Of a DNA stretch of 39,842 nucleotides, positions 2,786 through 39,796 are shown piece after piece (position 1 is the first letter of the stretch; the number at the start of each line of letters is the position of its first letter). The translations under genes and the position numbers were made by a program. The notes beneath the pieces were generated by a model. That model was not told the origin of the DNA, did not search any database, and worked only from the letters and a program-made list of their open reading frames with translations. The DNA comes from Escherichia phage JeanTinguely. The stretch lies in the sequence record MZ501081. One strand, 5' to 3'.

Positions 2786-2822
2786 TTTATGAGGCCAAGG
2801 AGGGCCACTTTAAGGAGGTAAT

Positions 2823-3263
2823 ATGATAAGCAAGAAGAAGTATGTAATTGATAAGGATACTGGCTGCTGGAACTTTAAGGGCTGTAAGACGAAGACTGGC
2901 TATGGTCGCATTCGTGTAAATGGAGTCCATTGGATGGCCCACAGGTATTCCCTGAGTTGTCATCTAGGTAGACCGATAGCTGACGGAATGGTTGTGATGC
3001 ACCTATGTGATAATCCTTCATGCGTTAACCCTGAGCACCTTAAGGAAGGGACTCAGAAGGAGAACATAGAGGATTGTATATCAAAAGGCAGGGCAACAAA
3101 GGCTACTGGCAAACGTGTGTCGAGGAGGGACCCTAGTGAGGAACGTAAGGCTATGGTCATTCGTCGATACCATAAAGGGTGGACAGCAACGTCCATAGCG
3201 AGATACCATAAGCTCTCTGTGGCGTGGGTAAAGCTGGTAATTGAGGCTTACCTAAGTGATTGA
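2823..3263 (+). CDS. Free-standing HNH homing endonuclease, 146 aa
   Basis: RBS aaggagg 7 nt before ATG; HNH motif with paired Cys/His (…GYGRIRVNGVHWMAHRYS…HLCDNPSCVNPEHL…); no counterpart at this locus in T7. Confidence 0.8.
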   Translation: MISKKKYVIDKDTGCWNFKGCKTKTGYGRIRVNGVHWMAHRYSLSCHLGRPIADGMVVMHLCDNPSCVNPEHLKEGTQKENIEDCISKGRATKATGKRVSRRDPSEERKAMVIRRYHKGWTATSIARYHKLSVAWVKLVIEAYLSD

Positions 3264-3314
3264 TATTTGAAATTAGTGATACAGGTCTAAGTATATGATT
3301 CCAGACCATTATTC

Positions 3315-3337
3315 TAATTCGACTCACTATAGGGAGA
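3315..3337 (+). promoter_or_regulatory. T7 RNAP promoter, phiOR equivalent
   Basis: taattcgactcactatagggaga, 1 mismatch to the 23-bp T7 consensus taatacgactcactatagggaga. Confidence 0.8.
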
Positions 3338-3428
3338 AGCCTACCTAAAGATAACTATAAGACTTAAAGTGGCCTATAAGGTAGGTTGTTATTATTGTTA
3401 ATACAACCAACATAAAGGGAGGAGACTA

Positions 3429-3818: not shown

Positions 3819-3999
3819 TCTCACAGTGTACGGACCCAAAGTTCCCCCATAGGGGGGGTCCTAAAGCCCAGCCAATCACCTTGAGTCAACTTTCAGTTGA
3901 CTTTGAGGGTCCCTAAGGGTTGGGGTTGGTCCTTTGGGTTATCTTTGAGTGTTGCTTTGAGTGTCTCTTTGTGTCCCTATCTGTTACAACCTCCTAAAG
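3819..3999. repeat. Terminal-repeat sequence of the mature genome (single copy present; boundaries approximate)
   Basis: tctcacagtgtacgg...ctgttacaacctcctaaag is colinear with the T7 direct terminal repeat, which starts with TCTCACAGTGTACGG at the genome left end; only one copy occurs in the window. Confidence 0.55.
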
Positions 4000-4140
4000 T
4001 CACCTCCTAAAGTCATTCCTACCGTCTACAGCCTAAAGCCTAAACCTAAAGACCCATCAAGTCAACGCCTATCTTAAAGTATCCTCTAAAGACCAGCCTA
4101 AAGACCAGCCTAAAGACCAGCCTAAAGCCTATCCCTAAAG
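4000..4140. repeat. Left-end array of short cctaaag-type repeats, including a 12-bp unit gaccagcctaaa x3 at 4091-4126
   Basis: Direct inspection: repeated (c)ctaaag heptamers and three perfect tandem copies of gaccagcctaaa. Confidence 0.8.
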
Positions 4141-5276: not shown

Positions 5277-5299
5277 ATCATTCTATGAGGATTAAACGC

Positions 5300-5470
5300 A
5301 TGACGACTGGAATCTTTATGGCAACCGTTGCAGTATTCATAGCGATGGGATGGCGTAGCACCGCGTTGGAGCGCTCAAAGTTCCTTAAGCAACGTGATGC
5401 ACTACTAGAGAAGTTTGATGCTGAGGGGCGCGGTCAGGAAGCTCTGGAGGCCATAAAGTGCTATCGCTAA
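5300..5470 (+). CDS. Hypothetical small membrane protein, 56 aa (start inferred)
   Basis: RBS gagga 8 nt before ATG 5300; hydrophobic N-terminus TGIFMATVAVFIAMGW; no resemblance to T7 gp0.5/0.6 that I can recognise. Confidence 0.45.
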   Translation: MTTGIFMATVAVFIAMGWRSTALERSKFLKQRDALLEKFDAEGRGQEALEAIKCYR

Positions 5471-5655
5471 TTATCATCACTGGTTACGCTCTAATCCTAT
5501 ACGTGTTCCTTAGAGACTTCCGCAAGGGTATAAAGGTTCACAAAGCAACGCTAAGTTACTTTAAATACGGATTCCTACCACGGTTTACGGTACGTGAACA
5601 CAACGGGCGCTTTAAGGCGAACAAAGTAGGCATCTTTTACGTAGCAACTCATTAA
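5458..5655 (+). CDS. Hypothetical small membrane protein, 65 aa
   Basis: GTG start overlapping the previous stop, RBS ggagg 7 nt upstream; hydrophobic N-terminus [17 protein letters not shown]. Confidence 0.4.
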
Positions 5656-5677
5656 TCACACTTGGAGAATACATAAA

Positions 5678-6754
5678 GTGAACATCACCGACATCATGAA
5701 CGCTATCGACGCAATCAAAGCACTGCCAATCTGTGAACTTGACAAGCGCCAAGGTATGCTCATCGACTTACTGGTAGAGATGGTCAACAGCGAAACATGC
5801 GATGGAGAGCTAACCGAACTGAATCAGGCACTTGAGTTTCAAGACTGGTGGACTACCTTGAAGTGTCTCACGGCTGACGCAGGGTTCAAGATGCTCGGTA
5901 ATGGTCACTTCTCGGCTGCTTATAGCCACCCGCTGCTGCCTAACAGAGTGATTAAGGTGGGCTTTAAGAAAGAGGATTCAGGCGCAGCATACACCGCATT
6001 CTGCCGCATGTATCAGGGCCGTGCCGGTATCCCTAACGTCTACGATGTACAGCGTCACGCTGGATGCTATACGGTTGTACTCGATGCACTGAATGATTGT
6101 GAGCGTTTCAACAATGATGAACATTATAAATACGCTGAGATTGCAAGCGACATCATTGACTACAAATCAGATGAGCACGATGGGCTAACTGGGTGGGATG
6201 GCGAGTTCGTCGAGACTTGCAAGCTAATCCGCAAGTTCTTTGAGGGCATCGCTTCGTTCGACATGCACAGTGGGAACATCATGTTCGATGATAATGATGT
6301 ACCATACATTACCGACCCTGTATCGTTCTCGCAGAAGAAAGGTGGTTCGTTCAGTATTGACCCTGAGGAACTCATCAAGGAAGTCGAGGAGGTCGCACGT
6401 CAGAAGGAAATTGACCGCGCTAAGGAACGTAAAGCACGCCATGTTGGTCGATTGGAGGCACGCAGATTCAAACGTCGCAACCGCAAGGCACGTAGAGTAC
6501 ACCAAGCGAAGCGCGAGAGAATGCTTGCTGCGTGGCGAATGGCTGAACGTCAAGAACGACGTAACCATGAGAGAGCTGTAGATGTACTAGGAAGAACCGA
6601 TAACGCTATGCTCTGGGTCAACATGTTCGCTGGGGACTTTAAGGCGCTTGAGGAACGAATCGCAGCGCACTGGTGTAAAGCTGACCGAATGGCTATCGCT
6701 AACGGTCTTCCGCTTAACATCGACAAGAAACTTGACGCAATGCTAATGGGCTGA
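5678..6754 (+). CDS. 0.7: Ser/Thr protein kinase and host transcription shut-off protein (gp0.7), 358 aa
   Basis: GTG start after RBS ggaga; [28 protein letters not shown]... colinear with T7 gp0.7, including the Arg/Lys-rich C-terminal shut-off region. Confidence 0.95.
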
Positions 6755-9789: not shown

Positions 9790-10062
9790 ATGGGACGTTT
9801 ATATAGTGGCAATCTGGCAGCATACAAAGATGCTATCAAGCGCCTAAGAGAAGACCATGCCGTCGATGTGGTCACTGAGACTTATCGACGTGAAGACTAC
9901 GCACAGCGCCGATGGGTAGCTGGCGAGACTCTTCGAGTGGTCTTGCGGAATGGCGTAGAGCTAACATCCAAGAGGTTCGAACAGTCAGACGAAGACGTTC
10001 GCTGTAATGCACAGACGGCATGGCTCCGTAAGGTTCACAGTGATTTGAAGCACTGGAAGTAA
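9790..10062 (+). CDS. 1.2: gp1.2 homolog (dGTPase inhibitor in T7), 90 aa
   Basis: ATG 2 nt after the 1.1 stop; N-terminus MGRLYSGNLAA and C-terminus ...LKHWK resemble T7 gp1.2. Confidence 0.7.
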   Translation: MGRLYSGNLAAYKDAIKRLREDHAVDVVTETYRREDYAQRRWVAGETLRVVLRNGVELTSKRFEQSDEDVRCNAQTAWLRKVHSDLKHWK

Positions 10063-11159: not shown

Positions 11160-11559
11160 GTATAACCCTGCGGCTCCTTCTGGAGTCGTTTCCGCCTCTG
11201 GTAAACCAATAGGTTACAAGCGGAAAGATGGGTATTGGCTACTTTCTTATGGAGGAAAGCATGTACTTGCACACAGGGTTGTCTGGATGCTTAACTTCGG
11301 TGTCATACCTGAGGGAATGGTGATAGACCACATTAACAGAAACCCTAGCGATAACCGAATAGAGAATCTTCGAGTAGTAACTCAATCAGCTAACCTAATG
11401 AACGTAGGCGTCCGGTCTCACTGTAGGAGTGGAGAGAAGTTTATCTCCCTTGATGTGAGAACCGGACGTTTTTCCGTTCGTATCAGGAGAAAATCCTATG
11501 GCACATATGGTACTCTCGAAGAGGCTATAGCTGTGCGCGATGCTAATACGACTCACTAA
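11089..11559 (+). CDS. HNH endonuclease with C-terminal AP2-like DNA-binding domain, about 156 aa (start inferred)
   Basis: HNH core HRVVWMLNFGVIPEGMVIDHINRNPSDNRIENLRVVTQSAN plus AP2-like RTGRFSVRIRRKSYGTYGTLEEAIAVRD; RBS ggagga 8 nt before ATG 11089; overlaps the last 71 nt of the ligase gene in another frame. Confidence 0.7.
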   Translation: MAHYVTRPSPASEELRTIRKRKYKYNPAAPSGVVSASGKPIGYKRKDGYWLLSYGGKHVLAHRVVWMLNFGVIPEGMVIDHINRNPSDNRIENLRVVTQSANLMNVGVRSHCRSGEKFISLDVRTGRFSVRIRRKSYGTYGTLEEAIAVRDANTTH

Positions 11560-12089: not shown

Positions 12090-12628
12090 TGGGATGCATA
12101 GCTTGCTTAGAGAAAGACGACCGTTATCCACACACCTGTAATAAAGGAGCTAACAATATGACCGAACGTGAACAAGATATTATCATCAAGTTGATAGATA
12201 ATAATGATGGTCGTACTGGCGACACGTCTGGTTGCGACCTGTTCTGCGCTGGAGTACCTTGTGGTGAGTGCCCTGTAACAAACGATGAGAACATTACCTT
12301 AGGTGAAATCCGAGCGATGGACCCACGTAAACCCCATCTGAATAAACTTGAGGTAACTCCTACAGATGACCAGCCTTCCGCTGAATCAATCGAAGGTGTC
12401 ACTAAGCCTTCCCATTACATGCTGTTCGACGACATTGAGGCTATCGAGGTGATTGCCCGTTCAATGACTTGTGAGCAGTTCAAAGGTTACTGCTTAGGGA
12501 ACATCCTTAAGTACCGCCTACGTGCTGGTAAGAAGTCAGAACTGGCTTACTTAGAGAAAGACATGGCTAAAGCTGACTTCTATGGTGAATTGTACGAGAA
12601 ACATAAGGATAAGTGCTATGACGCGTGA
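12089..12628 (+). CDS. 1.7: Nucleoside monophosphate kinase (gp1.7), 179 aa
   Basis: [22 protein letters not shown]... matches T7 gp1.7 but starts at the internal GCIACLEKDD position; ATG overlaps the 1.6 stop (tgATGg). Confidence 0.8.
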   Translation: MGCIACLEKDDRYPHTCNKGANNMTEREQDIIIKLIDNNDGRTGDTSGCDLFCAGVPCGECPVTNDENITLGEIRAMDPRKPHLNKLEVTPTDDQPSAESIEGVTKPSHYMLFDDIEAIEVIARSMTCEQFKGYCLGNILKYRLRAGKKSELAYLEKDMAKADFYGELYEKHKDKCYDA

Positions 12629-12845
12629 AGAACTTCAAGCCGCATCGGTGAAGCGTAGAGCGCACAGGTTCTATCTGGCATACAAGGCTCTGCGCATGGG
12701 TATGCTGATGTTCTCGTTAGGACACAGTGAATATTGTGATAGTGACCTCCTACCGTTTGCTTATAAGAAGACACCTAGTCTGATTATCAAGGTAGAGGAG
12801 TATGAATATTCTGACGACTGTGTTATGGTGAACCGCTATGCTTAA
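12618..12845 (+). CDS. 1.8: gp1.8-position ORF, 75 aa (start uncertain)
   Basis: First ATG in frame at 12618, overlapping the end of 1.7; assigned by position only. Confidence 0.45.
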   Translation: MTREELQAASVKRRAHRFYLAYKALRMGMLMFSLGHSEYCDSDLLPFAYKKTPSLIIKVEEYEYSDDCVMVNRYA

Positions 12846-12886
12846 GCCTTCCGAATGGTGCCACAAGATGTGGACTGAATGTATAG

Positions 12887-13150
<264 letters not shown>

Positions 13151-14971: not shown

Positions 14972-16687
<1,716 letters not shown>

Positions 16688-17736: not shown

Positions 17737-19695
17737 ATGATCGTTTCTGACATCGAAGCTAACGCCCTCTTAGAGAGCGTCACTAAGTTCCACTGCGGGG
17801 TTATCTACGACTACTCCACCACTGAGTACGTAAGCTACCGTCCGAGTGACTTCGGTGCGTATCTGGATGCGCTGGAAGCCGAGGTTTCACGAGGCGGTCT
17901 TATTGTGTTCCACAACGGTCACAAGTATGACGTGCCTGCATTGACCAAACTGGCAAAGTTACAGTTGAACAGAGAGTTCCACCTTCCTCGTGAGAACTGT
18001 ATTGACACCCTTGTGCTGTCACGTTTGATTCACTCTAACCTAAAGGACACCGATATGGGTCTCCTGCGTTCCGGTAAGTTGCCGGGGAACCGCTTTGGGT
18101 CTCACGCTTTGGAGGCGTGGGGTTATCGCTTAGGCGAAATGAAGGGTGAATACAAGGACGACTTTAAGCGTATGCTTGAAGAGCAAGGTGAAGAATACGT
18201 TGACGGAATGGAGTGGTGGAACTTCAACGAAGAGATGATGGCCTATAACGTTCAGGACGTTGTGGTCACTAAAACTCTCCTTGAGAAGCTACTCTCTGAC
18301 AAACATTACTTCCCTCCTGAGATTGACTTTACGGACGTAGGATACACTACGTTCTGGTCAGAATCCCTTGAGGCCGTTGACATTGAGCATCGTGCTGCAT
18401 GGCTACTCGCTAAGCAAGAGCGCAATGGGTTCCCGTTTGACACGAAAGCAATCGAAGAATTGTACGTAGAGTTAGCTGCGAGACGCTCTGAGTTGCTACG
18501 TAAATTGACAGAAACGTTCGGCTCGTGGTATCAGCCGAAAGGTGGCACTGAGATGTTCTGCCATCCACGAACAGGTAAGCCACTGCCTAAATACCCTCGC
18601 ATTAAGATACCTAAAGTTGGTGGTATCTTTAAGAAGCCTAAGAACAAGGCACAGCGAGAAGGCCGTGAGCCTTGCGAACTGGACACCCGCGAGTACGTTG
18701 CTGGTGCTCCTTATACGCCAGTTGAGCACGTAGTGTTTAACCCATCGTCTCGTGACCACATTCAGAAGAAACTCCAAGAGGCTGGGTGGGTCCCCACGAA
18801 GTACACCGATAATGGTGCGCCTGTGGTGGACGATGAGGTACTCGAAGGAGTACGTGTAGATGACCCTGAGAAGCAAGCTGCCATCGACCTCATTAAAGAG
18901 TACCTGATGATTCAGAAGCGAATCGGACAGTCTGCTGAGGGAGACAAGGCGTGGCTTCGTTACGTTGCTGAGGACGGTAAGATTCATGGTTCTGTTAATC
19001 CCAACGGCGCTGTTACTGGGCGCGCTACTCACGCTTTCCCTAACCTCGCACAAGTACCCGGTGTCCGTTCTCCTTATGGTGATAAGTGCCGCGCTGCTTT
19101 TGGCGCTGAACATCACCTAGACGGTATTACTGGTAAGCCTTGGGTTCAGGCTGGCATCGACGCATCCGGTCTGGAGCTACGCTGCTTGGCCCACTTCATG
19201 GCTCGCTTTGATAACGGTGAGTACGCTAGAGAGATTCTTCATGGCGACATCCACACTAAAAACCAGCTAGCTGCTGAATTACCTACCCGTGATAACGCAA
19301 AGACGTTCATCTATGGGTTCCTCTATGGTGCTGGCGATGAGAAGATTGGGCAGATTGTTGGTGCTGGTAAAGAGCGCGGTAAGGAACTCAAGAAGAAATT
19401 CCTTGAGAACACACCCGCGATTGCAGCACTCCGCGAGTCTATCCAACAGACACTTGTCGAGTCCTCTCAGTGGGTAGCTGGTGAGCAACAAGTCAAGTGG
19501 AAACGCCGCTGGATTAAAGGTCTGGATGGTCGTAAGGTACACGTTCGTAGTCCTCACGCTGCCTTGAATACACTACTGCAATCTGCTGGTGCTCTTATCT
19601 GCAAACTGTGGATTATCAAGACCGAAGAGATGCTAGTAGAGAAAGGCTTGAAGCATGGCTGGGATGGGGACTTTGCGTACATGGCATGGGTGCAT
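17737..19695 (+). CDS. 5: DNA polymerase (gp5) exon 1, codons 1-653
   Basis: [69 protein letters not shown]... colinear with T7 DNA polymerase up to ...DFAYMAWVH; the frame then hits a stop 8 codons later. Confidence 0.9.
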
Positions 19696-20296
19696 AAACT
19701 ATCTCATTGTGCACATTAAATCTGGTGAACTCGGTGAAACCCTTCTGGGGCAATACCGAGCCAAGCCATAGGGAGGATATATGAGAGGCAAGAAGTTAAT
19801 CCTTGCGGCCACAGAGAGTGGTTGTATCATCCCTACGTCGCACAAACTTAATGCTGATGGTTATTTCCGAAAGAAGACGAACGGTGTCCTAGAGATGTAT
19901 CACAGGACAGTCTGGAAGGAACACTACGGAGATATACCAGAAGGGTATGAAGTAGACCACAAGTGTAGGAACAGGGCGTGCTGTAACGTAGAGCACCTCC
20001 AGTTACTAGAAGGTTCTGAGCATACAGTCAAGACAAACAGGGAACGCTACGCTGACCGTAAAGAGTCCGCGAAGGAATACTTGTTGGAGACTGGATGTAC
20101 AGGAACACACTTAGGTGAGAAGTTTGGTGTAACGTTCTCTGCCGCTTGTAAGTGGATTAGAGAGTGGAAGGCGTAGAGACTATCCGAAAGGAGTAGGGCC
20201 GAGGGTGAAATTCCCTCGTTACCCGAAGCGCCAGACAGTCAACTCAAAGGCTGATGATATAGTCCGACACTCCTAGTAATAGGAGAATACAGAAAG
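19696..20296 (+). mobile_element. Group I-type intron (601 nt) in gene 5 carrying an HNH homing-endonuclease ORF
   Basis: Interrupts an otherwise colinear 704-codon gene; preceded by exon U (19695), ends in G (20296); intron gugcac (19709-19714) can pair with exon-terminal gugcau (19690-19695) to form a P1 helix with a U-G wobble at the splice site. Confidence 0.75.
19781..20176 (+). CDS. Intron-encoded HNH homing endonuclease, 131 aa
   Basis: RBS gggagga before ATG; HNH motif ...YHRTVWKEHYGDIPEGYEVDHKCRNRACCNVEHLQLLEGSEH... Confidence 0.85.
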   Translation: MRGKKLILAATESGCIIPTSHKLNADGYFRKKTNGVLEMYHRTVWKEHYGDIPEGYEVDHKCRNRACCNVEHLQLLEGSEHTVKTNRERYADRKESAKEYLLETGCTGTHLGEKFGVTFSAACKWIREWKA

Positions 20297-33835: not shown

Positions 33836-36800
33836 ATGGATAAGTACGATAAGAACGTACCAAGTGAGTATGATGGTCTGTTCCAGAAGGCGGCTGATGC
33901 CACAGGGGTCTCTTATGACCTTTTACGTAAAGTCGCTTGGACGGAATCACGATTTGTACCTACAGCTAAATCTAAGACTGGACCGCTAGGGATGATGCAA
34001 TTCACCAAGGCTACCGCTAAGGCCCTTGGTCTGCGAGTTACCGATGGTCCAGATGATGACCGACTGAACCCTGAGTTGGCTATCAATGCTGCTGCCAAGC
34101 ACCTTGCTGAACTGGTGAGTAAATTCGATGGGGACGAACTTAAGGCGGCCCTTGCGTACAATCAAGGTGAGGGACACTTTGGTAATCCACAACTTGAGGC
34201 GTACTCCAAGGGAGACTTCGCGTCCATCTCTGAGGAAGGACGGAACTACATGCGTAACCTTCTGGATGTTGCTAAGTCACCTATGGCTGGACAGTTGGAA
34301 ACTTTTGGAGGTATCACCCCAAAGGGTAAAGGCATTCCGGCTGAGGTAGGATTGGCTGGAATCGGTCACAGTCAGAAAGTAACGCGGGAACTTCCTGAGT
34401 CCACAAGTTTTGACGTTAAGGGTATCGAACAGGAGGCTCCGGCGAAACCATTCGCCAAGGACTTTTGGGAGACCCACGGAGAGACACTTGACGAGTACAA
34501 TAATCGTTCAACCTTCTTCGGATTCAAAAATGCTGCCGAAGCTGAACTCTCAAACTCAGTAGCTGGGATGGCTTTCCGTGCTGGTCGTCTCGACAATGGT
34601 TTTGACGTGTTTAAAGACACCATTACGCCGACTCGCTGGAACTCTCACATCTGGACTCCAGAAGAGTTAGAGAAGATTAGAAAAGAGGTTAAGAACCCTG
34701 CGTACATCAACGTGGTAACTGGTGGTTCCCCTGAGAATCTTGACGACCTCATAAAGATGGCTAACGAGAACTTTGAGGCTGACTCCCGCGCTGCCGAAGC
34801 TGGCCTAGGTGCCAAACTGAGTGCTGGCGTTATTGGCGCTGGTGTGGACCCACTTAGCTATGTTCCTATGGTCGGTGTAACTGGTAAGGGCTTTAAGTTA
34901 ATCAATAAGGCTCTCGTAGTTGGTGCAGAAAGTGCTACTCTGAACGTTGCATCCGAAGGTCTCCGTACCTCTGTAGCGGGTGGTGATGCAGACTATGCTG
35001 GTGCGACCTTAGGTGGCTTTGTGTTTGGCGCTGGTATGTCTGCAATCAGTGACGCTGTAGCTGCTGGCCTGAAACGTAGTAAACCAGAAGCTGAGTTCGA
35101 CAATGAGTTCATCGGTCCTATGATGCGAATGGAAGCCCGTGAGACCGCACGCAACGCCAACTCTACGGACCTCTCTCGGATGAACACTGAGAACATGAAG
35201 TTTGAAGGTGAACATAATGGTGTCCCTTATGCGGAATTACCAACAGAGAGAGGTGCCGTGGTGTTGCATGATGGCTCCGTCCTAAGTGCAAGCAACCCAA
35301 TCAACCCTAAGACTCTCAAAGAGTTCTCAGAGGTTGACCCTGAGAAGGCAGCACGAGGAATCAAACTTGCTGGGTTCACCGAGATTGGTTTGAAGACCTT
35401 GGGGTCTGACGATGCTGACATCCGTAGCGTGGCTATCGACCTCGTTCGCTCTCCTACTGGTATGCAGTCTGGTGCCTCAGGTAAGTTCGGTGCAACAGCT
35501 TCTGACATCCACGAGAGACTTCATTGTACTGACCAGCGTACTTATAATGACTTGTACAAAGCAATGTCTGACGCTATGAAAGACCCTGAGTTCTCTACTG
35601 GCGGTGCTAAGATGTCCCGTGAAGAAGTTCGCTACACTATCTATCGTAGAGCGGCACTGGCTATTGAGCGTCCAGAGTTACAGAAGGCACTTACTCCGTC
35701 TGAGAGAATCGTTATGGACATCATTAAGCGTCACTTTGACACCAAGCGTGAACTTATGGAAAACCCAGCAATCTTCGGTAACACAAAGGCTGTGAGTATC
35801 TTCCCTGAGAGTCGTCACAAAGGGACTTACGTTCCTCACGTATACGACCGTCACGCCAAGGCGCTGATGATTCAACGCTACGGTGCCGAAGGTTTACAGG
35901 AAGGTATTGCTCGTTCGTGGATGAACAGCTACGTCTCCAGACCTGAGGTCAAGGCCAGAGTCGATGAGACGCTTAAGGAAGTACACGGGGTGAATGAAGT
36001 AACGCCAGAGATGGTAGAGAAGTACGCTATGGATAAGGCTTACGGTATCTCCCATTCAGACCAGTTCACCAATAGTTCCATAATCGAAGAGAACATTGAG
36101 GGCTTAGTAGGTATCGAGAACAACTCATTCCTTGAGGCGCGTAACTTGTTTGATTCGGACCTATCCATCACTATGCCAGACGGACAGCAATTCTCAGTGA
36201 ACGACCTAAGGGACTTCGATATGTTCCGCATCATGCCAGCGTATGACCGCCGTATCAACGGTGACATCGCCATCATGGGGTCTACTGGTAAAACCACTAA
36301 GGAACTTAAGGATGAGATTCTAGCTCTCAAAGCGAAAGCTGAGGGAGACGGTAAGAAGACTGGCGAGGTTCATGCCCTAATGGATACCGTTAAGATTCTT
36401 ACTGGTCGCGCTAGACGCAATCAGGACACTGTGTGGGAAACAGCACTGCGTTCCATCAATGACCTAGGGTTCTTCGCTAAGAACGCCTATATGGGTGCTC
36501 AGAACATTACGGAGATTTCTGGGATGATTGTCACTGGTAACGTGCGCGCTCTCGGTCACGGTATCCCAATTCTGCGCGATATACTCTACAAGTCTAAACC
36601 AGTTTCCGCTAAGGAACTCAAGGAACTCCATGCGTCTCTGTTCGGGAAGGAGGTGGACCAGTTGATTCGACCTAAACGTGCTGACATTGTGCAGCGCCTA
36701 AGGGAAGCAACTGATACCGGACCTGCTGTGGCGAACATCGTAGGGACCTTGAAGTATTCCACACAGGAACTGGCTGCTCGTTCACCTTGGACGATGATGT

Positions 36801-37792
36801 TGAACGGCACTACTAACTACCTTCTGGATGCTGCGCGTCAAGGGATGCTTGGGGATATTATTAGTGCCACCTTAACAGGTAAGACTACCCGCTGGGAGAA
36901 AGAAGGATTCCTTCGGGGTGCCTCCGTAACTCCTGAGCAGATGGCTGGCATCAAGTCTCTCATCAAGGAACATATGGTACGTGGTGAGGACGGTAAGTTT
37001 ACCGTTAAGGACAAGCAAGCGTTCTCTATGGACCCACGGGCTATGGACTTATGGCGACTTGCTGACAAGGTAGCTGATGAGGCAATGCTGCGTCCGCATA
37101 AGGTGTCCTTACAGGATTCCCATGCGTTCGGAGCACTAGGTAAGATGGTAATGCAGTTTAAGTCTTTCACTATCAAGTCCCTTAACTCTAAGTTCCTGCG
37201 AACCTTCTATGATGGATACAAGAACAACCGAGCGATTGACGCTGCGCTGAGCATTATCACCTCAATGGGTCTCGCTGGTGGTTTCTATGCTATGGCCGTA
37301 CACGTCAAAGCGTATGGGATGCCTAAGGAGAAACGTAAGGAGTATTTGGAGCGTGCATTGGACCCAACCATGATTGCCCACGCTGCGTTGTCTCGTAGTT
37401 CTCATTTAGGTGCTCCTTTGGCTATGGTGGACCTCATTGGCGGTGTCTTGGGGTTCGAGTCATCAAAGATGGCTCGCTCTACGATTCTACCTAAGGACAC
37501 CATGAAGGAACGTGACCAAAACAAACCGTACACCTCTAGAGAGATAATTGGCGATATGGGTTCAAACCTTCTGGAACAGATGCCTTCTGCTGGCTTTGTG
37601 GCTAACGTAGGGGCGACCCTGATGAATGCTGCTGGTGTTGTCAACTCACCTAACAAAGCAACCGAGCAGGACTTCATGACTGGCTTAATGAACTCTACCA
37701 AAGAGTTAGTACCGAACGACCCATTGACTCAACAGCTTGTGTTGAAGATTTATGAGGCCAATGGTGTGAACTTGAGGGAACGTAGGAAATAA
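33836..37792 (+). CDS. 16: Internal virion protein D (gp16) with N-terminal lytic transglycosylase domain, 1318 aa
   Basis: MDKYDKNVPSEYDGLFQKAADATGVSYDLLRKVAWTESRF...GMMQFT (transglycosylase motif); same length as T7 gp16. Confidence 0.95.
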   Translation: MDKYDKNVPSEYDGLFQKAADATGVSYDLLRKVAWTESRFVPTAKSKTGPLGMMQFTKATAKALGLRVTDGPDDDRLNPELAINAAAKHLAELVSKFDGDELKAALAYNQGEGHFGNPQLEAYSKGDFASISEEGRNYMRNLLDVAKSPMAGQLETFGGITPKGKGIPAEVGLAGIGHSQKVTRELPESTSFDVKGIEQEAPAKPFAKDFWETHGETLDEYNNRSTFFGFKNAAEAELSNSVAGMAFRAGRLDNGFDVFKDTITPTRWNSHIWTPEELEKIRKEVKNPAYINVVTGGSPENLDDLIKMANENFEADSRAAEAGLGAKLSAGVIGAGVDPLSYVPMVGVTGKGFKLINKALVVGAESATLNVASEGLRTSVAGGDADYAGATLGGFVFGAGMSAISDAVAAGLKRSKPEAEFDNEFIGPMMRMEARETARNANSTDLSRMNTENMKFEGEHNGVPYAELPTERGAVVLHDGSVLSASNPINPKTLKEFSEVDPEKAARGIKLAGFTEIGLKTLGSDDADIRSVAIDLVRSPTGMQSGASGKFGATASDIHERLHCTDQRTYNDLYKAMSDAMKDPEFSTGGAKMSREEVRYTIYRRAALAIERPELQKALTPSERIVMDIIKRHFDTKRELMENPAIFGNTKAVSIFPESRHKGTYVPHVYDRHAKALMIQRYGAEGLQEGIARSWMNSYVSRPEVKARVDETLKEVHGVNEVTPEMVEKYAMDKAYGISHSDQFTNSSIIEENIEGLVGIENNSFLEARNLFDSDLSITMPDGQQFSVNDLRDFDMFRIMPAYDRRINGDIAIMGSTGKTTKELKDEILALKAKAEGDGKKTGEVHALMDTVKILTGRARRNQDTVWETALRSINDLGFFAKNAYMGAQNITEISGMIVTGNVRALGHGIPILRDILYKSKPVSAKELKELHASLFGKEVDQLIRPKRADIVQRLREATDTGPAVANIVGTLKYSTQELAARSPWTMMLNGTTNYLLDAARQGMLGDIISATLTGKTTRWEKEGFLRGASVTPEQMAGIKSLIKEHMVRGEDGKFTVKDKQAFSMDPRAMDLWRLADKVADEAMLRPHKVSLQDSHAFGALGKMVMQFKSFTIKSLNSKFLRTFYDGYKNNRAIDAALSIITSMGLAGGFYAMAVHVKAYGMPKEKRKEYLERALDPTMIAHAALSRSSHLGAPLAMVDLIGGVLGFESSKMARSTILPKDTMKERDQNKPYTSREIIGDMGSNLLEQMPSAGFVANVGATLMNAAGVVNSPNKATEQDFMTGLMNSTKELVPNDPLTQQLVLKIYEANGVNLRERRK

Positions 37793-37812
37793 TACGACTC
37801 ACTATAGGGAGA
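37790..37812 (+). promoter_or_regulatory. T7 RNAP class III promoter phi17
   Basis: Perfect consensus; overlaps the gene 16 stop codon. Confidence 0.9.
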
Positions 37813-37864: not shown

Positions 37865-39796
37865 ATGGCTAACGTAATTAAAACCGTTTTGACTTACCAG
37901 TTAGATGGCTCCAAGCGTGATTTTAATATCCCGTTTGAGTATCTAGCCCGTAAGTTCGTAGTGGTAACTCTTATTGGTGTAGACCGCAAGGTTCTTACGA
38001 TTAATGCAGACTACCGTTTTGCTACACGTACTACCATATCACTGACCAAGGCTTGGGGTCCAGCCGATGGCTACACGACCATCGAGTTACGTCGAGTAAC
38101 CTCAGCGACCGACCGATTGGTTGACTTTACGGACGGCTCCATCCTCCGTGCGTATGACCTTAACGTTGCTCAGATTCAGACAATGCACGTAGCGGAAGAG
38201 GCTCGTGACATGACTGCGGATACTATCGGTGTCAACAATAACGGTCACTTGGATGCCCGTGGTCGTAAGATTGTGAACCTAGCGTTCGCTACTGGCGACT
38301 ATGATGCCGTCCCACTTAAGCAGATTAAGGAACGTGAGACCTCTGTGTGGAACGCTGTTACTAAAGCTGATGAACACGCTAACCGCTCCAACAAGGAAGC
38401 CAATCGCTCACGCGACGAAGCTGACCGCGCGAAACGTGAAGCTGACCGCTCGACCCAACAGGCAGGTGTTTCTACGGCACAAGCAGTTGAGTCCAAGAAT
38501 CAAGCTGACCGTTCCAACTCTGAGGCCAATCGTGCTAAAGGCTATGCTGACAGTATGACCGCAAGTGTCGCTGAGGCCAAGAAGCAAGCTGACCGTTCCA
38601 ACTCTGAGGCCAATCGTGCCCGTGATGAGGCCAATCGTTCTGCCGGAGAAGTGACTAAGGCTGCTGCTGAGGTTGCTAAAGCTGCTGCACACGTTGAGAC
38701 CGCTAAGGGACACGCTGACCGTGCTAACACTGAGGCTAACCGCTCTAAGAGTGAAGCTGACCGTGCTAAGACTGAGGCCGATAAGTTGGGTAATATGAAT
38801 GGCCTCGCGGGAACCATTGAGAGCATTGGGAGTAACGGCAAGGATGTGAACTTCAAAGGTGGCGTGAATGGTCACACACTTCTAGCTAAAGATTCTGTAC
38901 ACGTTGGGGTTCAGCCAAACACTGCGTCACTCACTGAAACCACACTACGCATTCGCAACCGTAACAACAAGGAGCGCACTTGGGACATCTATGCTTGGGG
39001 TAATGATTCTGGACGTGGTAATGTGCTTGAGTTCGGGTCTAACTATGGTCAAACATGGGGGATGTACTTGCAGTTTGCTAAAGGTGACTCACAAGATTCA
39101 CGACTTAGTGTTAATGGTGAGATTGTAGCTAAGACAGATATTTCAGGAAGGGGCATCACAGCAAGTGGGCAATTGATTACCAGCTCGCCATTCCTTAAGC
39201 TGATTAACTCTGGTCGTCGCCACATTCAGTTCATGACTGCCGATAACTACACTGATGGTTATCTCTACAAAGACCCCGGTGTTGGTGTGTGGAGACTTAA
39301 CTTTGGTCAGGCAGCTAGCATGGAGTATACGTTTGCTTCAAATGGTACATTAACATCCAGCTCCGGCTGGTATATCCCACCAGATGGCAACCTGTACATC
39401 CAGAAATATGGACTGTATATTGATACGTGGGTTAACAACCGCTTGGGCGAACACGCCTACACCAAAGGAGAAGTGAACAACTTGGTCAATGCTCGATTGA
39501 CACAAGCCCAAGCTGATGCTCGATACGTCAATAAGAATGCTGGGTGGGCTGAGGTGTGGAAAGGCACTGCTGGTGGTGGTGTTTCCGTAGGTCTCTCACA
39601 GGATGTCCGATGGAGAACTATCTGGATTCAGACTAACGGACGCTGGAACGCTGTGCCTATTGGTGACAATGCGTCTTACTTCATCGCGTCTGATGGTGGC
39701 TGGTTGAAGTTCACTATCTCCAACAACGGGCGAACATTCCGTAACGATGAGGATCACCACTCTGTACCAACTCGTATTCTAGTACAGAGCCAATAA
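37865..39796 (+). CDS. 17: Tail fibre protein gp17, 643 aa, with divergent middle region and extended coiled-coil
   Basis: N-terminus MANVIKTVLTYQLDGSKRDFNIPFEYLARKFVVVTLIGVDRKVL and C-terminus ...GGGVSV...YFIASDGGWL... resemble T7 gp17; from about residue 145 to the C-terminal domain the sequence differs and is 90 aa longer overall. Confidence 0.93.
   Translation: MANVIKTVLTYQLDGSKRDFNIPFEYLARKFVVVTLIGVDRKVLTINADYRFATRTTISLTKAWGPADGYTTIELRRVTSATDRLVDFTDGSILRAYDLNVAQIQTMHVAEEARDMTADTIGVNNNGHLDARGRKIVNLAFATGDYDAVPLKQIKERETSVWNAVTKADEHANRSNKEANRSRDEADRAKREADRSTQQAGVSTAQAVESKNQADRSNSEANRAKGYADSMTASVAEAKKQADRSNSEANRARDEANRSAGEVTKAAAEVAKAAAHVETAKGHADRANTEANRSKSEADRAKTEADKLGNMNGLAGTIESIGSNGKDVNFKGGVNGHTLLAKDSVHVGVQPNTASLTETTLRIRNRNNKERTWDIYAWGNDSGRGNVLEFGSNYGQTWGMYLQFAKGDSQDSRLSVNGEIVAKTDISGRGITASGQLITSSPFLKLINSGRRHIQFMTADNYTDGYLYKDPGVGVWRLNFGQAASMEYTFASNGTLTSSSGWYIPPDGNLYIQKYGLYIDTWVNNRLGEHAYTKGEVNNLVNARLTQAQADARYVNKNAGWAEVWKGTAGGGVSVGLSQDVRWRTIWIQTNGRWNAVPIGDNASYFIASDGGWLKFTISNNGRTFRNDEDHHSVPTRILVQSQ

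Follow-up and report, generated by a model that had tools for sequence, protein, structure and literature searches.

The tail fiber gene of Escherichia phage JeanTinguely lies within the 39,842-bp stretch of DNA analyzed here (the window) and encodes a protein of 643 aa, compared with the 553 aa of T7 gp17. This raises the question of whether the additional length reflects a foreign module that has displaced part of the T7 fiber or a variant of the T7 architecture itself. Through profile, structural, and genomic comparisons, we found that the protein is very probably a fiber of T7 architecture in the form of a longer recombinant allele, with a Berlinvirus-type distal shaft and a tip like that of phage SYGE1. 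An earlier note, made from the sequence, had already given the length of the ORF and predicted a mosaic fiber; both stand, as the ORF is confirmed, the shaft is 42 aa longer than that of T7, and the distal half is 48 aa longer and of a different allele family. The features are collected in Table 1.

Table 1. Features of the gene 17 region of JeanTinguely (positions in the window)
Feature	Position	Strand	Evidence
phi17, T7-type class III promoter, TAATACGACTCACTATAGGGAGA	37790..37812	+	Read directly in the sequence
Gene 17, tail fiber protein, 643 aa	37865..39796	+	ORF list; 100% protein identity; PHROG 4242
N-terminal tail-attachment domain, Teseptimavirus/T7 type, aa 1-150	37865..38314	+	PF03906; identity to T7
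α-Helical shaft, predicted coiled coil, aa 151-317	38315..38815	+	Heptad layout; AF2 model
Direct repeat copy 1, 35 nt exact, encodes QADRSNSEANRA	38501..38535	+	Exact-repeat search
Direct repeat copy 2, offset from copy 1 by 84 nt (28 codons, 4 heptads)	38585..38619	+	
Predicted all-β distal-shaft ("pyramid"-type) domain, aa 318-520	38816..39424	+	hhalign; AF2; Foldseek
Predicted helical linker, aa 521-555, ~23-aa insertion relative to T7	39425..39529	+	Alignment gaps; AF2
Receptor-binding tip domain, aa 556-643, T7 gp17 tip fold	39530..39793	+	phmmer; identity; AF2

Genomic setting and the tail-attachment domain

JeanTinguely (Bas64) is a T7-like coliphage of the genus Teseptimavirus, and its gene 17 codes for the lateral tail fiber. 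In a protein search, the product is 100% identical to the deposited "tail fiber protein" of Escherichia phage JeanTinguely, and its residues 1 to 642 match positions 1 to 627 of the 628 positions of the PHROG 4242 profile (E = 4e-233). The gene is found in a typical T7-like gp17 setting, with gene 16 upstream, the 17.5 holin as the next gene, and the phi17 promoter ahead of it. This promoter overlaps the stop codon of gene 16, which ends at 37792; the T7 annotation places phi17 in the matching location, and the other T7-promoter sites of the window carry the identical phi17 20-mer. Ahead of the gene itself is a ribosome-binding site, AAGGAGG. A search of the whole window against Rfam at the gathering threshold gave no match, the Pfam search found no intramolecular S74 chaperone (PF13884) in gp17, and no chaperone (tfa) gene follows gene 17. 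In blastn, the T7 alignment of the backbone runs at 94% identity as far as position 38284, is lost from 38285 on, and resumes at the holin (T7 position 36345). The backbone is also 97% identical to that of the Teseptimavirus Bas103. In INPHARED, a collection that lacks JeanTinguely, the best whole-gene DNA match for gene 17 reaches 72% coverage at 95% identity.

The gp17 fiber would be a homotrimer present six times per virion, with four predicted parts: an N-terminal domain, a helical coiled-coil proximal rod, a β distal shaft, and a helical linker followed by a small β-sandwich tip. It is collinear with T7 gp17 domain by domain, and its domain order, with PF03906, rod, predicted β shaft, linker, and tip, is that of the T7 fiber, for which there are solved structures (4A0T and 4A0U for aa 371 to 553; 7BOZ, 7EY9, 8E4G, and 8DSP for the N terminus). 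The attachment domain is recovered by PF03906 over aa 1 to 155 (E = 3.1e-64), matches the T7 structures 7BOZ, 8E4G, and 8DSP, and is identical to T7 at 139 of its 150 residues (93%), whereas berlinviruses reach only 111 to 113 of 149. It would dock on the gp11/gp12 tail, and an N terminus of T7 type would suit the phage's own T7-type tail.

The predicted coiled-coil shaft and its direct repeat

The shaft consists of 22 unbroken heptads with the consensus [D/N]-R-[A/S]-x-x-E-A; the stretch that the earlier note described as "heptad-like" is a true heptad array. AF2 models aa 151 to 317 as a single continuous helix with pLDDT mostly >90, and the segment probably forms a coiled coil in trimeric packing. 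It is 37% identical to the T7 rod and exceeds it by exactly 42 aa (six heptads), which by calculation would add about 6 nm to the fiber. Among 120 homolog clusters, shafts of 113 and 155 aa between the anchors are common, and there is one of 132 aa. The long shaft is found joined to many different distal domains among the homologs and is common to many Teseptimavirus and Berlinvirus fibers; at the nucleotide level, that of JeanTinguely is 90 to 98% identical to those of SYGE1 and Bas103 and ~90% identical to those of berlinviruses.

The ORF list contains two long minus-strand frames under the shaft, at 38408 to 38875 (155 aa) and 38542 to 38856 (104 aa), and if these were real overlapping genes they could account for its conservation. 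We consider the chance of this to be negligible and rejected them as compositional: the Ala, Asp, Arg, and Glu codons of the rod (GCT, GAC, CGT, and GAG) have stop-free complements, and the frames are open for this reason. Similar antisense frames occur in every relative and even in the nonidentical shaft of T7, their ends shift between relatives, they lie in two different frames, and we found no promoter or homolog in their favor.

Within the rod, the 35-mer CAAGCTGACCGTTCCAACTCTGAGGCCAATCGTGC occurs exactly twice, with the match extending on neither side, and this pair is the sole exact direct repeat of at least 35 nt in the window. The earlier note had reported this perfect repeat and was right about its existence, although it placed the first copy one base too far downstream and the second one base too far upstream. 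By our own arithmetic, ~1e-12 exact pairs of 35-mers would be expected by chance in 40 kb. The pair is the core of a wider repeat of 48 nt with 96% identity (38488 to 38535 and 38572 to 38619) set in a 21-nt periodic array, and similarity between the copies spans just 48 of the 84 nt that separate their starts. The output of Tandem Repeats Finder was limited to two short 21-nt arrays and did not include the pair with 84-nt spacing.

No other exact repeat in the window is as long, and the pair lies in low-complexity periodic sequence of the kind prone to assembler slippage, so that it might be suspected of being an assembly artifact or a recent duplication private to JeanTinguely, and the earlier note did present it as an internal duplication of this fiber. 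However, the pair is also found, with the same 84-nt spacing, in seven other independently sequenced genomes from two genera (Bas103, SYGE1, BSP161, nasanit, 285P, and BA14 and, in diverged form, PYps50T), with exact runs of 22 to 41 nt in six of them. Because of this occurrence across genomes and genera, we regard the repeat as inherited and reject both a new duplication and an artifact. The continuity of the frame and heptad register across both copies and the 127× coverage of the deposited genome further make an artifactual or private origin highly improbable. The rod carries an inherited 16-codon block twice, four heptads apart, and the perfect repeat is part of this block.

The near identity of the copies in most carriers could come from occasional gene conversion. 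On the 5′ side, copy 1 of BSP161 has copy-2 sequence (giving the 41-nt run), and copy 1 of JeanTinguely and SYGE1 has the synonymous state AAT of copy 2; such patterns hint that conversion may have taken place. The evidence for it is thin, and one synonymous change is all that lies between the 30-nt run of Bas103 and the 35-nt run seen here. The patterns also raise the idea that the pair is functional, serving as a recombination substrate for in-register deletion or duplication of four heptads that yields fibers of different lengths, with the copies held alike by conversion. The 4-heptad spacing means that gain or loss of the interval would preserve both frame and register, and T7 reportedly recombines short direct repeats efficiently (Pierce, Kong, and Masker, 1991). 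Nevertheless, we regard this as very unlikely. The restriction of common shafts to the two length classes noted above speaks against it, no shaft 28 aa off the long class was found among the 120 homolog cluster representatives, the similarity is limited to the 48-nt block, and the sequence patterns can be explained by one or two point changes. Less likely again is that the paired 48-nt blocks, kept alike by conversion, constitute a built-in recombination site for in-register variants of ±28 aa (~4 nm by calculation); if this were true, the pair would provide a simple form of bet hedging by which a phage population could reach receptors beneath varying surface glycan layers. A diversity-generating retroelement or phase variation was dropped as an interpretation, as the repeat is located in the structural shaft and not in the receptor tip. 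The preferred reading remains an inherited repeat in a periodic rod.

The distal shaft, the tip, and LPS dependence

The earlier note described the middle of the protein as unlike the T7 fiber, and it is conceivable that aa 318 to 550 are a nonhomologous receptor-binding or enzymatic module that has replaced the T7 distal shaft. A Pfam search with the full protein recovers only the N-terminal domain, with PF20744 undetected at E <0.01 and no match to PF12604, whereas T7 gp17 matches both; blastn to T7 is blank here, and pairwise BLASTP gives a marginal hit (26% identity, E = 0.037). In contrast, profile-profile comparison with hhalign aligns the middle domain to the T7-type fiber with 97.2% probability (E = 3.6e-11) over 170 collinear columns at 22% identity, the counterpart being aa 274 to 461 of T7 gp17. 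In the AF2 model, the domain is all-β, with pLDDT of 80 to 90 over its first 120 residues, and the model's best Foldseek matches in the PDB are 4A0U and 4A0T, i.e., T7 gp17 371 to 553, at E = 3e-13, with both pyramid and tip covered. These models depict monomers of an intertwined trimer; their pTM is low (0.33 to 0.43), and the linker is poorly predicted. Furthermore, BA14-type sequences bridge the middle domain and T7 as intermediates (31% identity, E = 3e-19), and gp17 matches no enzyme family in Pfam or PHROG. On the basis of these profile and model comparisons, we take the middle domain to be very probably a distant homolog of the T7 distal half, strongly diverged and with insertions, and hold a foreign module to be very unlikely. 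Colinearity with T7, which the earlier note had set against its own interpretation, thus extends over the full length of the fiber at the profile and fold levels.

AF2 predicts the linker as two helices with low confidence between them. The tip that follows is modeled with pLDDT of ~90 or higher, is recovered by phmmer against PDB 4A0T (E = 3e-24), and is identical to T7 at 46 of 87 positions (53% over the last 88 aa); together with the attachment domain, it bears out the earlier statement that the two ends of the protein resemble T7. A mutational scan of the T7 tip has defined its critical residues (PMC8043750), and most of these are kept in JeanTinguely, namely, G476, G479, N501, G510, D520 to G522, G532, D540, S543, and V544 (T7 numbering). 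A departure is seen in the HI loop, where the motif D630-H631-H632-S-V-P (39752 to 39769) has H631/H632 in place of the T7 "hook" S541/R542; DHHSVP is found in no other of the 120 cluster representatives.

The tip would bind the LPS core, and the published receptor of JeanTinguely is "rough LPS," with plating reduced on waaC and waaG mutants. For its efficiency of plating (EOP) on the waaG mutant, the published data give 0.08 to 0.27 in three experiments out of four and 0.0027 in the remaining one, while the T7 values are 4e-5 to 4e-4, which amounts to a waaG dependence about 1,000-fold weaker in JeanTinguely; on the waaC mutant, the values are 1e-4 to 5e-4 for JeanTinguely and 4e-6 or less for T7 (PMC8594841, S1 data). 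These EOPs are consistent with a changed LPS-core specificity relative to T7, and the altered tip and distal half most likely lie behind the weaker dependence on waaG (outer LPS core) and waaC (heptose). The phenotype is not assignable to gp17 alone; in the published EOPs, T3(K12), which has the distal gp17 of T7, also loses less of its infectivity than T7 when plated on the waaC mutant. The altered fiber is nonetheless a concrete candidate cause of the weak outer-core dependence of JeanTinguely. The earlier prediction of a specificity and host range different from those of T7 therefore holds for receptor dependence but not for host range, which is the same among the tested strains: both phages plate on K-12 and on B, the O16 O-antigen blocks the two alike, and UTI89, CFT073, 55989, and Salmonella are lysed by neither (PMC8594841, S1 data).

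Provenance of the fiber domains

Nucleotide identity in 20-codon bins against eight relatives reveals gene 17 to be a mosaic, in which an N terminus of Teseptimavirus type is followed by a long shaft of wide occurrence, a middle domain of Berlinvirus type, and a tip like that of SYGE1. The N terminus and long shaft are 90 to 100% identical at the nucleotide level to those of the teseptimaviruses SYGE1 and EmilieLinder (Bas103). SYGE1 also shares the tip (90 to 100%) and has an unrelated middle domain, whereas Bas103 has a different distal half, a tfa gene for the separate Mu-like Tfa chaperone that it requires, and the O16 O-antigen as its target. The DNA of the middle domain is present in only 10 phage records, at 75 to 86% nucleotide identity. 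Six of the seven phages that carry it are annotated as Berlinvirus (BSP161, nasanit, PYPS50 and two variants, and 285P), the other being Enterobacter phage PZJ0206. As identity never exceeds 86% in any relative, the source of this domain has yet to be sampled, and the data do not show which way the transfer went.

Fibers of the BSP161/nasanit/PYPS50/285P type (PHROG 4242) are the sole carriers of this middle-domain allele and are collinear with JeanTinguely gp17 over their full length, with 642 to 643 aa and 78 to 82% amino acid identity. They differ in having their own type of N-terminal 80 aa (50 to 78% nucleotide identity), where JeanTinguely has the T7 type; the JeanTinguely tip is closer to that of SYGE1, and its genome backbone is without Berlinvirus character. 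The longer allele would have arisen by homologous recombination at conserved junctions.

This mosaic is real but belongs to an ordinary, previously described kind of variation, as modular swapping of receptor-binding parts among T7-like fibers is well established and an equivalent case has been published. The Teetrevirus Sxt1 (Sekstaphage-1) has an elongated, Berlinvirus-like lateral tail fiber that clusters with Berlinvirus and not with its backbone; it displays distal-shaft insertions and a 27-aa linker insertion, and its authors suggest that this fiber widens the host range (PMC11680406). Sxt1, from a sister genus, is thus a parallel case, with a matching linker insertion and 66% identity to JeanTinguely gp17 over the full length, but differs in its middle-domain allele (29% identity over aa 316 to 520) and in the genus of its backbone. 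What the present analysis provides is a domain-by-domain provenance of the fiber for one member of the BASEL collection, a reference phage set in wide use, and the conserved junctions near aa 134 to 150, 300 to 316, and 500 offer natural splice points for the engineering of T7-family fibers.

Gene 17 and the heptad shaft of its fibre

The window spans an entire T7-like genome in rotated form, running from the gene 17.5 holin to just past gene 17, which is preceded by a strong ribosome-binding site. In the table of the BASEL collection, JeanTinguely (Bas64, MZ501081; 39,842 bp, 127x coverage) appears as a Teseptimavirus from Basel sewage with "rough LPS" as its receptor, and protein searches recovered the deposited "tail fiber protein [Escherichia phage JeanTinguely]" at 100% identity over its full length. 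The phage and its gene 17 annotation are thus already public, the gene is correctly annotated, and its product and PHROG 4242 ("tail fiber protein") match over their whole length. The BASEL paper does not discuss this fibre, though it does discuss the Berlinvirus-like gp1.2 allele, and we found no description of a domain-level mosaic of the JeanTinguely fibre in searchable papers.

Features of gene 17 and its segments (segment affinities from codon-aligned nucleotide identity in 20-codon bins)
Feature	Position	Strand	Basis or closest relatives	Other relatives
T7 class III promoter, perfect, ahead of gene 17	37790-37812	+	Read in sequence	
Gene 17 ORF, 643 aa	37865..39796	+	ORF call	
35-bp repeat, copy 1	38501-38535			
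35-bp repeat, copy 2	38585-38619			
First segment	codons 1-140		Bas103, SYGE1, T7 (87-100% nt)	Berlinviruses only 50-78% up to codon 80
Second segment	codons 141-300		SYGE1, Bas103 (90-98% nt)	Berlinviruses mostly 72-98%
Third segment	codons 321-500		BSP161, nasanit, PYps50T (77-93% nt)	285P 48-85%
Fourth segment	codons 501-643		SYGE1 (85-100% nt)	BA14 90-95% over codons 501-540

The T7 gp17 fibre is trimeric and attaches to the tail via its N terminus. As the earlier note had proposed, this region is T7-like in JeanTinguely: 139 of the first 150 residues are identical to those of T7, the domain matches Pfam PF03906, and aa 1-150 match solved structures of the tail-bound T7 N terminus. The fibre is also longer than that of T7, as had been claimed (643 versus 553 aa). 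Laying out the sequence of aa 151-317 in sevens resolved a stretch previously termed heptad-like into 22 uninterrupted heptads with the consensus [D/N]-R-[A/S]-x-x-E-A, the two core positions being filled by Ala/Val and Ala/Ser; an AlphaFold2 monomer model renders it as one continuous helix (pLDDT of >90 over most of its length). Between conserved anchors, this shaft measures 165 aa versus 123 in T7, a difference of 42 aa or six heptads. Assuming about 0.15 nm per residue, this would lengthen the rod by about 6 nm relative to T7. Shaft lengths of 113 and 155 aa, which are in equal phase modulo 7, dominate among 120 homologue cluster representatives. Minus-strand open frames under the shaft recur, with shifting ends, in every relative and also in the different shaft of T7, and we rejected them as a by-product of codon composition.

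The 35-mer reported within the shaft is present exactly twice, one base from the positions first given. It cannot be extended, and the window holds no longer exact direct repeat; a repeat finder placed it within a 48-nt pair at 96% identity, in an array with a 21-nt period and at least 11 units. The repeat is real and no chance match. At the protein level its copies correspond to (K)QADRSNSEANRA, found at aa 213-225 and again, 28 residues (four heptads) further on, at aa 241-253. The pair recurs with equal spacing in Bas103, SYGE1, BSP161, nasanit, 285P, and BA14 (exact runs of 22 to 41 nt), which rules out an assembly error and also a duplication special to JeanTinguely; PYps50T has a diverged version, and the short shaft of T7 lacks the pair. 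The repeat pair therefore belongs to the long-shaft allele and was inherited with it. The 35-nt run is one synonymous base away from the 30-nt run of Bas103, and the 5' side of copy 1 in BSP161 carries copy-2 sequence, slight hints of occasional gene conversion between copies. None of the 120 representatives is a natural shaft variant with a 28-aa difference.

A distal half compared with that of T7

The earlier note held the middle of the fibre to be unlike T7. At the level of DNA and Pfam domains this stands: blastn found no T7 match past 38284 within gene 17, and PF20744 and PF12604, both detected in T7, were not found in the JeanTinguely fibre. Profile and fold comparisons indicate otherwise. 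A profile of the mid domain (the all-beta distal shaft, aa 318-520) aligned collinearly with one of T7-type distal shafts (97.2% probability; E = 3.6e-11; 170 columns at 22% identity, aa 316-525 against T7 274-461). The AlphaFold2 model of aa 316-643 (mean pLDDT of 78.8, about 90 or higher in the tip) is all-beta up to a helical, poorly predicted linker, and its closest PDB structures are 4A0U and 4A0T (T7 gp17 371-553; E about 3e-13, with nearly the entire target covered). The T7-like character claimed for the last residues holds, as the tip (aa 556-643) shares 46 of 87 residues with T7 and matches 4A0T by sequence alone (E = 3e-24). Together, these profile, fold, and tip matches suggest that the fibre is collinear with that of T7, with insertions in the rod, beta shaft, and linker; the distal part (aa 318-643) comprises 328 aa versus 280 in T7. 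It thus appears to be not a receptor-binding protein of another kind but a longer allele that has diverged.

Mosaic origin and plating phenotype

Comparison by nucleotide identity reveals four segments in gene 17 with differing closest relatives (see the table), of which codons 321-500 are essentially unrelated in T7, Bas103, SYGE1, and BA14. Across the remaining genome, identity is 94% to T7 and 97% to the Teseptimavirus Bas103. A dedicated search of 50,697 phage records found mid-domain DNA in only 10 of them, at 75 to 86% identity; the carriers are BSP161, nasanit, 285P, PZJ0206, and PYPS50 with two variants, and those whose genus was checked, all but PZJ0206, are annotated as Berlinviruses. 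With no relative above 86% nucleotide identity, the donor is unsampled. Alignment placed the switch points within stretches conserved across all fibres (GHLDARGRKIVNLA, EADKLGNMNGLAG, and GWYIPPDGNLYI), where homologous recombination would be expected to occur. In other phages the long shaft precedes many different distal domains, some with chaperone or collar domains, a pattern that demonstrates modular exchange.

The same N terminus and long shaft are found in EmilieLinder (Bas103), the closest backbone relative (locus L002 4310-4837; PQ850602.1 39594-40121). Past the shaft its distal half differs, a separate gene of Mu-like type for tail fibre assembly (Tfa) comes next, and the phage is O16 O-antigen dependent. 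One shaft junction therefore takes very different receptor-binding modules. An equivalent case from a sister genus is the Teetrevirus Sxt1, whose fibre clusters with those of Berlinvirus, is elongated by beta-shaft insertions and a 27-aa linker insertion, retains a tip of the T7 fold, and may widen host range according to the paper describing it (2024; PMC11680406). Mosaicism in gp17 genes is therefore already known, and the JeanTinguely fibre is ordinary, with no new kind of biology. Overall, what the earlier note observed is borne out, and its interpretation partly so.

Among T7 tip residues that are mutationally critical (2021; PMC8043750), G476, G479, N501, G510, D520, G521, G522, G532, D540, S543, and V544 are kept. 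The HI-loop pair S541/R542, including the arginine "hook" R542, is replaced by H631/H632 at positions hypervariable in homologues, and the motif DHHSVP occurs in no other of the 120 representatives. Of the predicted change in receptor specificity or host range, the receptor part is borne out by published platings on LPS-core mutants (PMC8594841 S1 data): efficiencies on waaG (rfaG) are 0.08 to 0.27 (0.0027 in one experiment) versus 4e-5 to 4e-4 for T7, and on waaC (rfaC) 1e-4 to 5e-4 versus 4e-6 or less. Host range in the same panel is nevertheless that of T7: both phages plate on E. coli B REL606, neither forms plaques on K-12 with restored O16 O-antigen, and neither lyses UTI89, CFT073, 55989, or two Salmonella strains. 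The fibre mosaic could explain the plating phenotype, and we infer that the difference on core mutants is due to gp17; however, T3(K12), which carries the distal gp17 of T7, likewise plates unlike T7 on waaC, and therefore other virion proteins contribute.

Other features of the window

Gene 5 (DNA polymerase) carries a 601-nt insertion at 19686-20286 (+), between T7 positions 16311 and 16312, containing a 131-aa HNH-type ORF (19781-20176) and matching the full Rfam group I intron model RF00028 (36.8 bits versus a gathering threshold of 50; E = 1.2e-7). It looks like a group I intron with a homing endonuclease, as reportedly described by Bonocora and Shub in 2004 from the DNA polymerase genes of certain T7-like phages. 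The stretch 9828-10044 has no T7 blastn match and is equivalent to gene 1.2 (dGTPase inhibitor, T7 6137-6394); according to the BASEL paper, JeanTinguely has a Berlinvirus-like gp1.2 allele and is PifA resistant. This would be a second Berlinvirus-type patch in the Teseptimavirus backbone, after the fibre. Four further stretches of 300 to 600 nt each without T7 blastn matches (2792-3405, 5281-5678, 11160-11540, and 12621-12941) probably represent replaced alleles or small accessory genes of the early region and the right end. At 3819-3978, T7 aligns with both its right end (to position 39937) and its left end (starting at position 1), the two overlapping by 160 bp, and therefore the physical ends and a single stored terminal-repeat copy lie inside the window. 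Immediately inward of the left genome end, at 4086-4120, a short tandem array repeats at a 12-nt offset, with an exact 30-mer starting at both 4086 and 4098.
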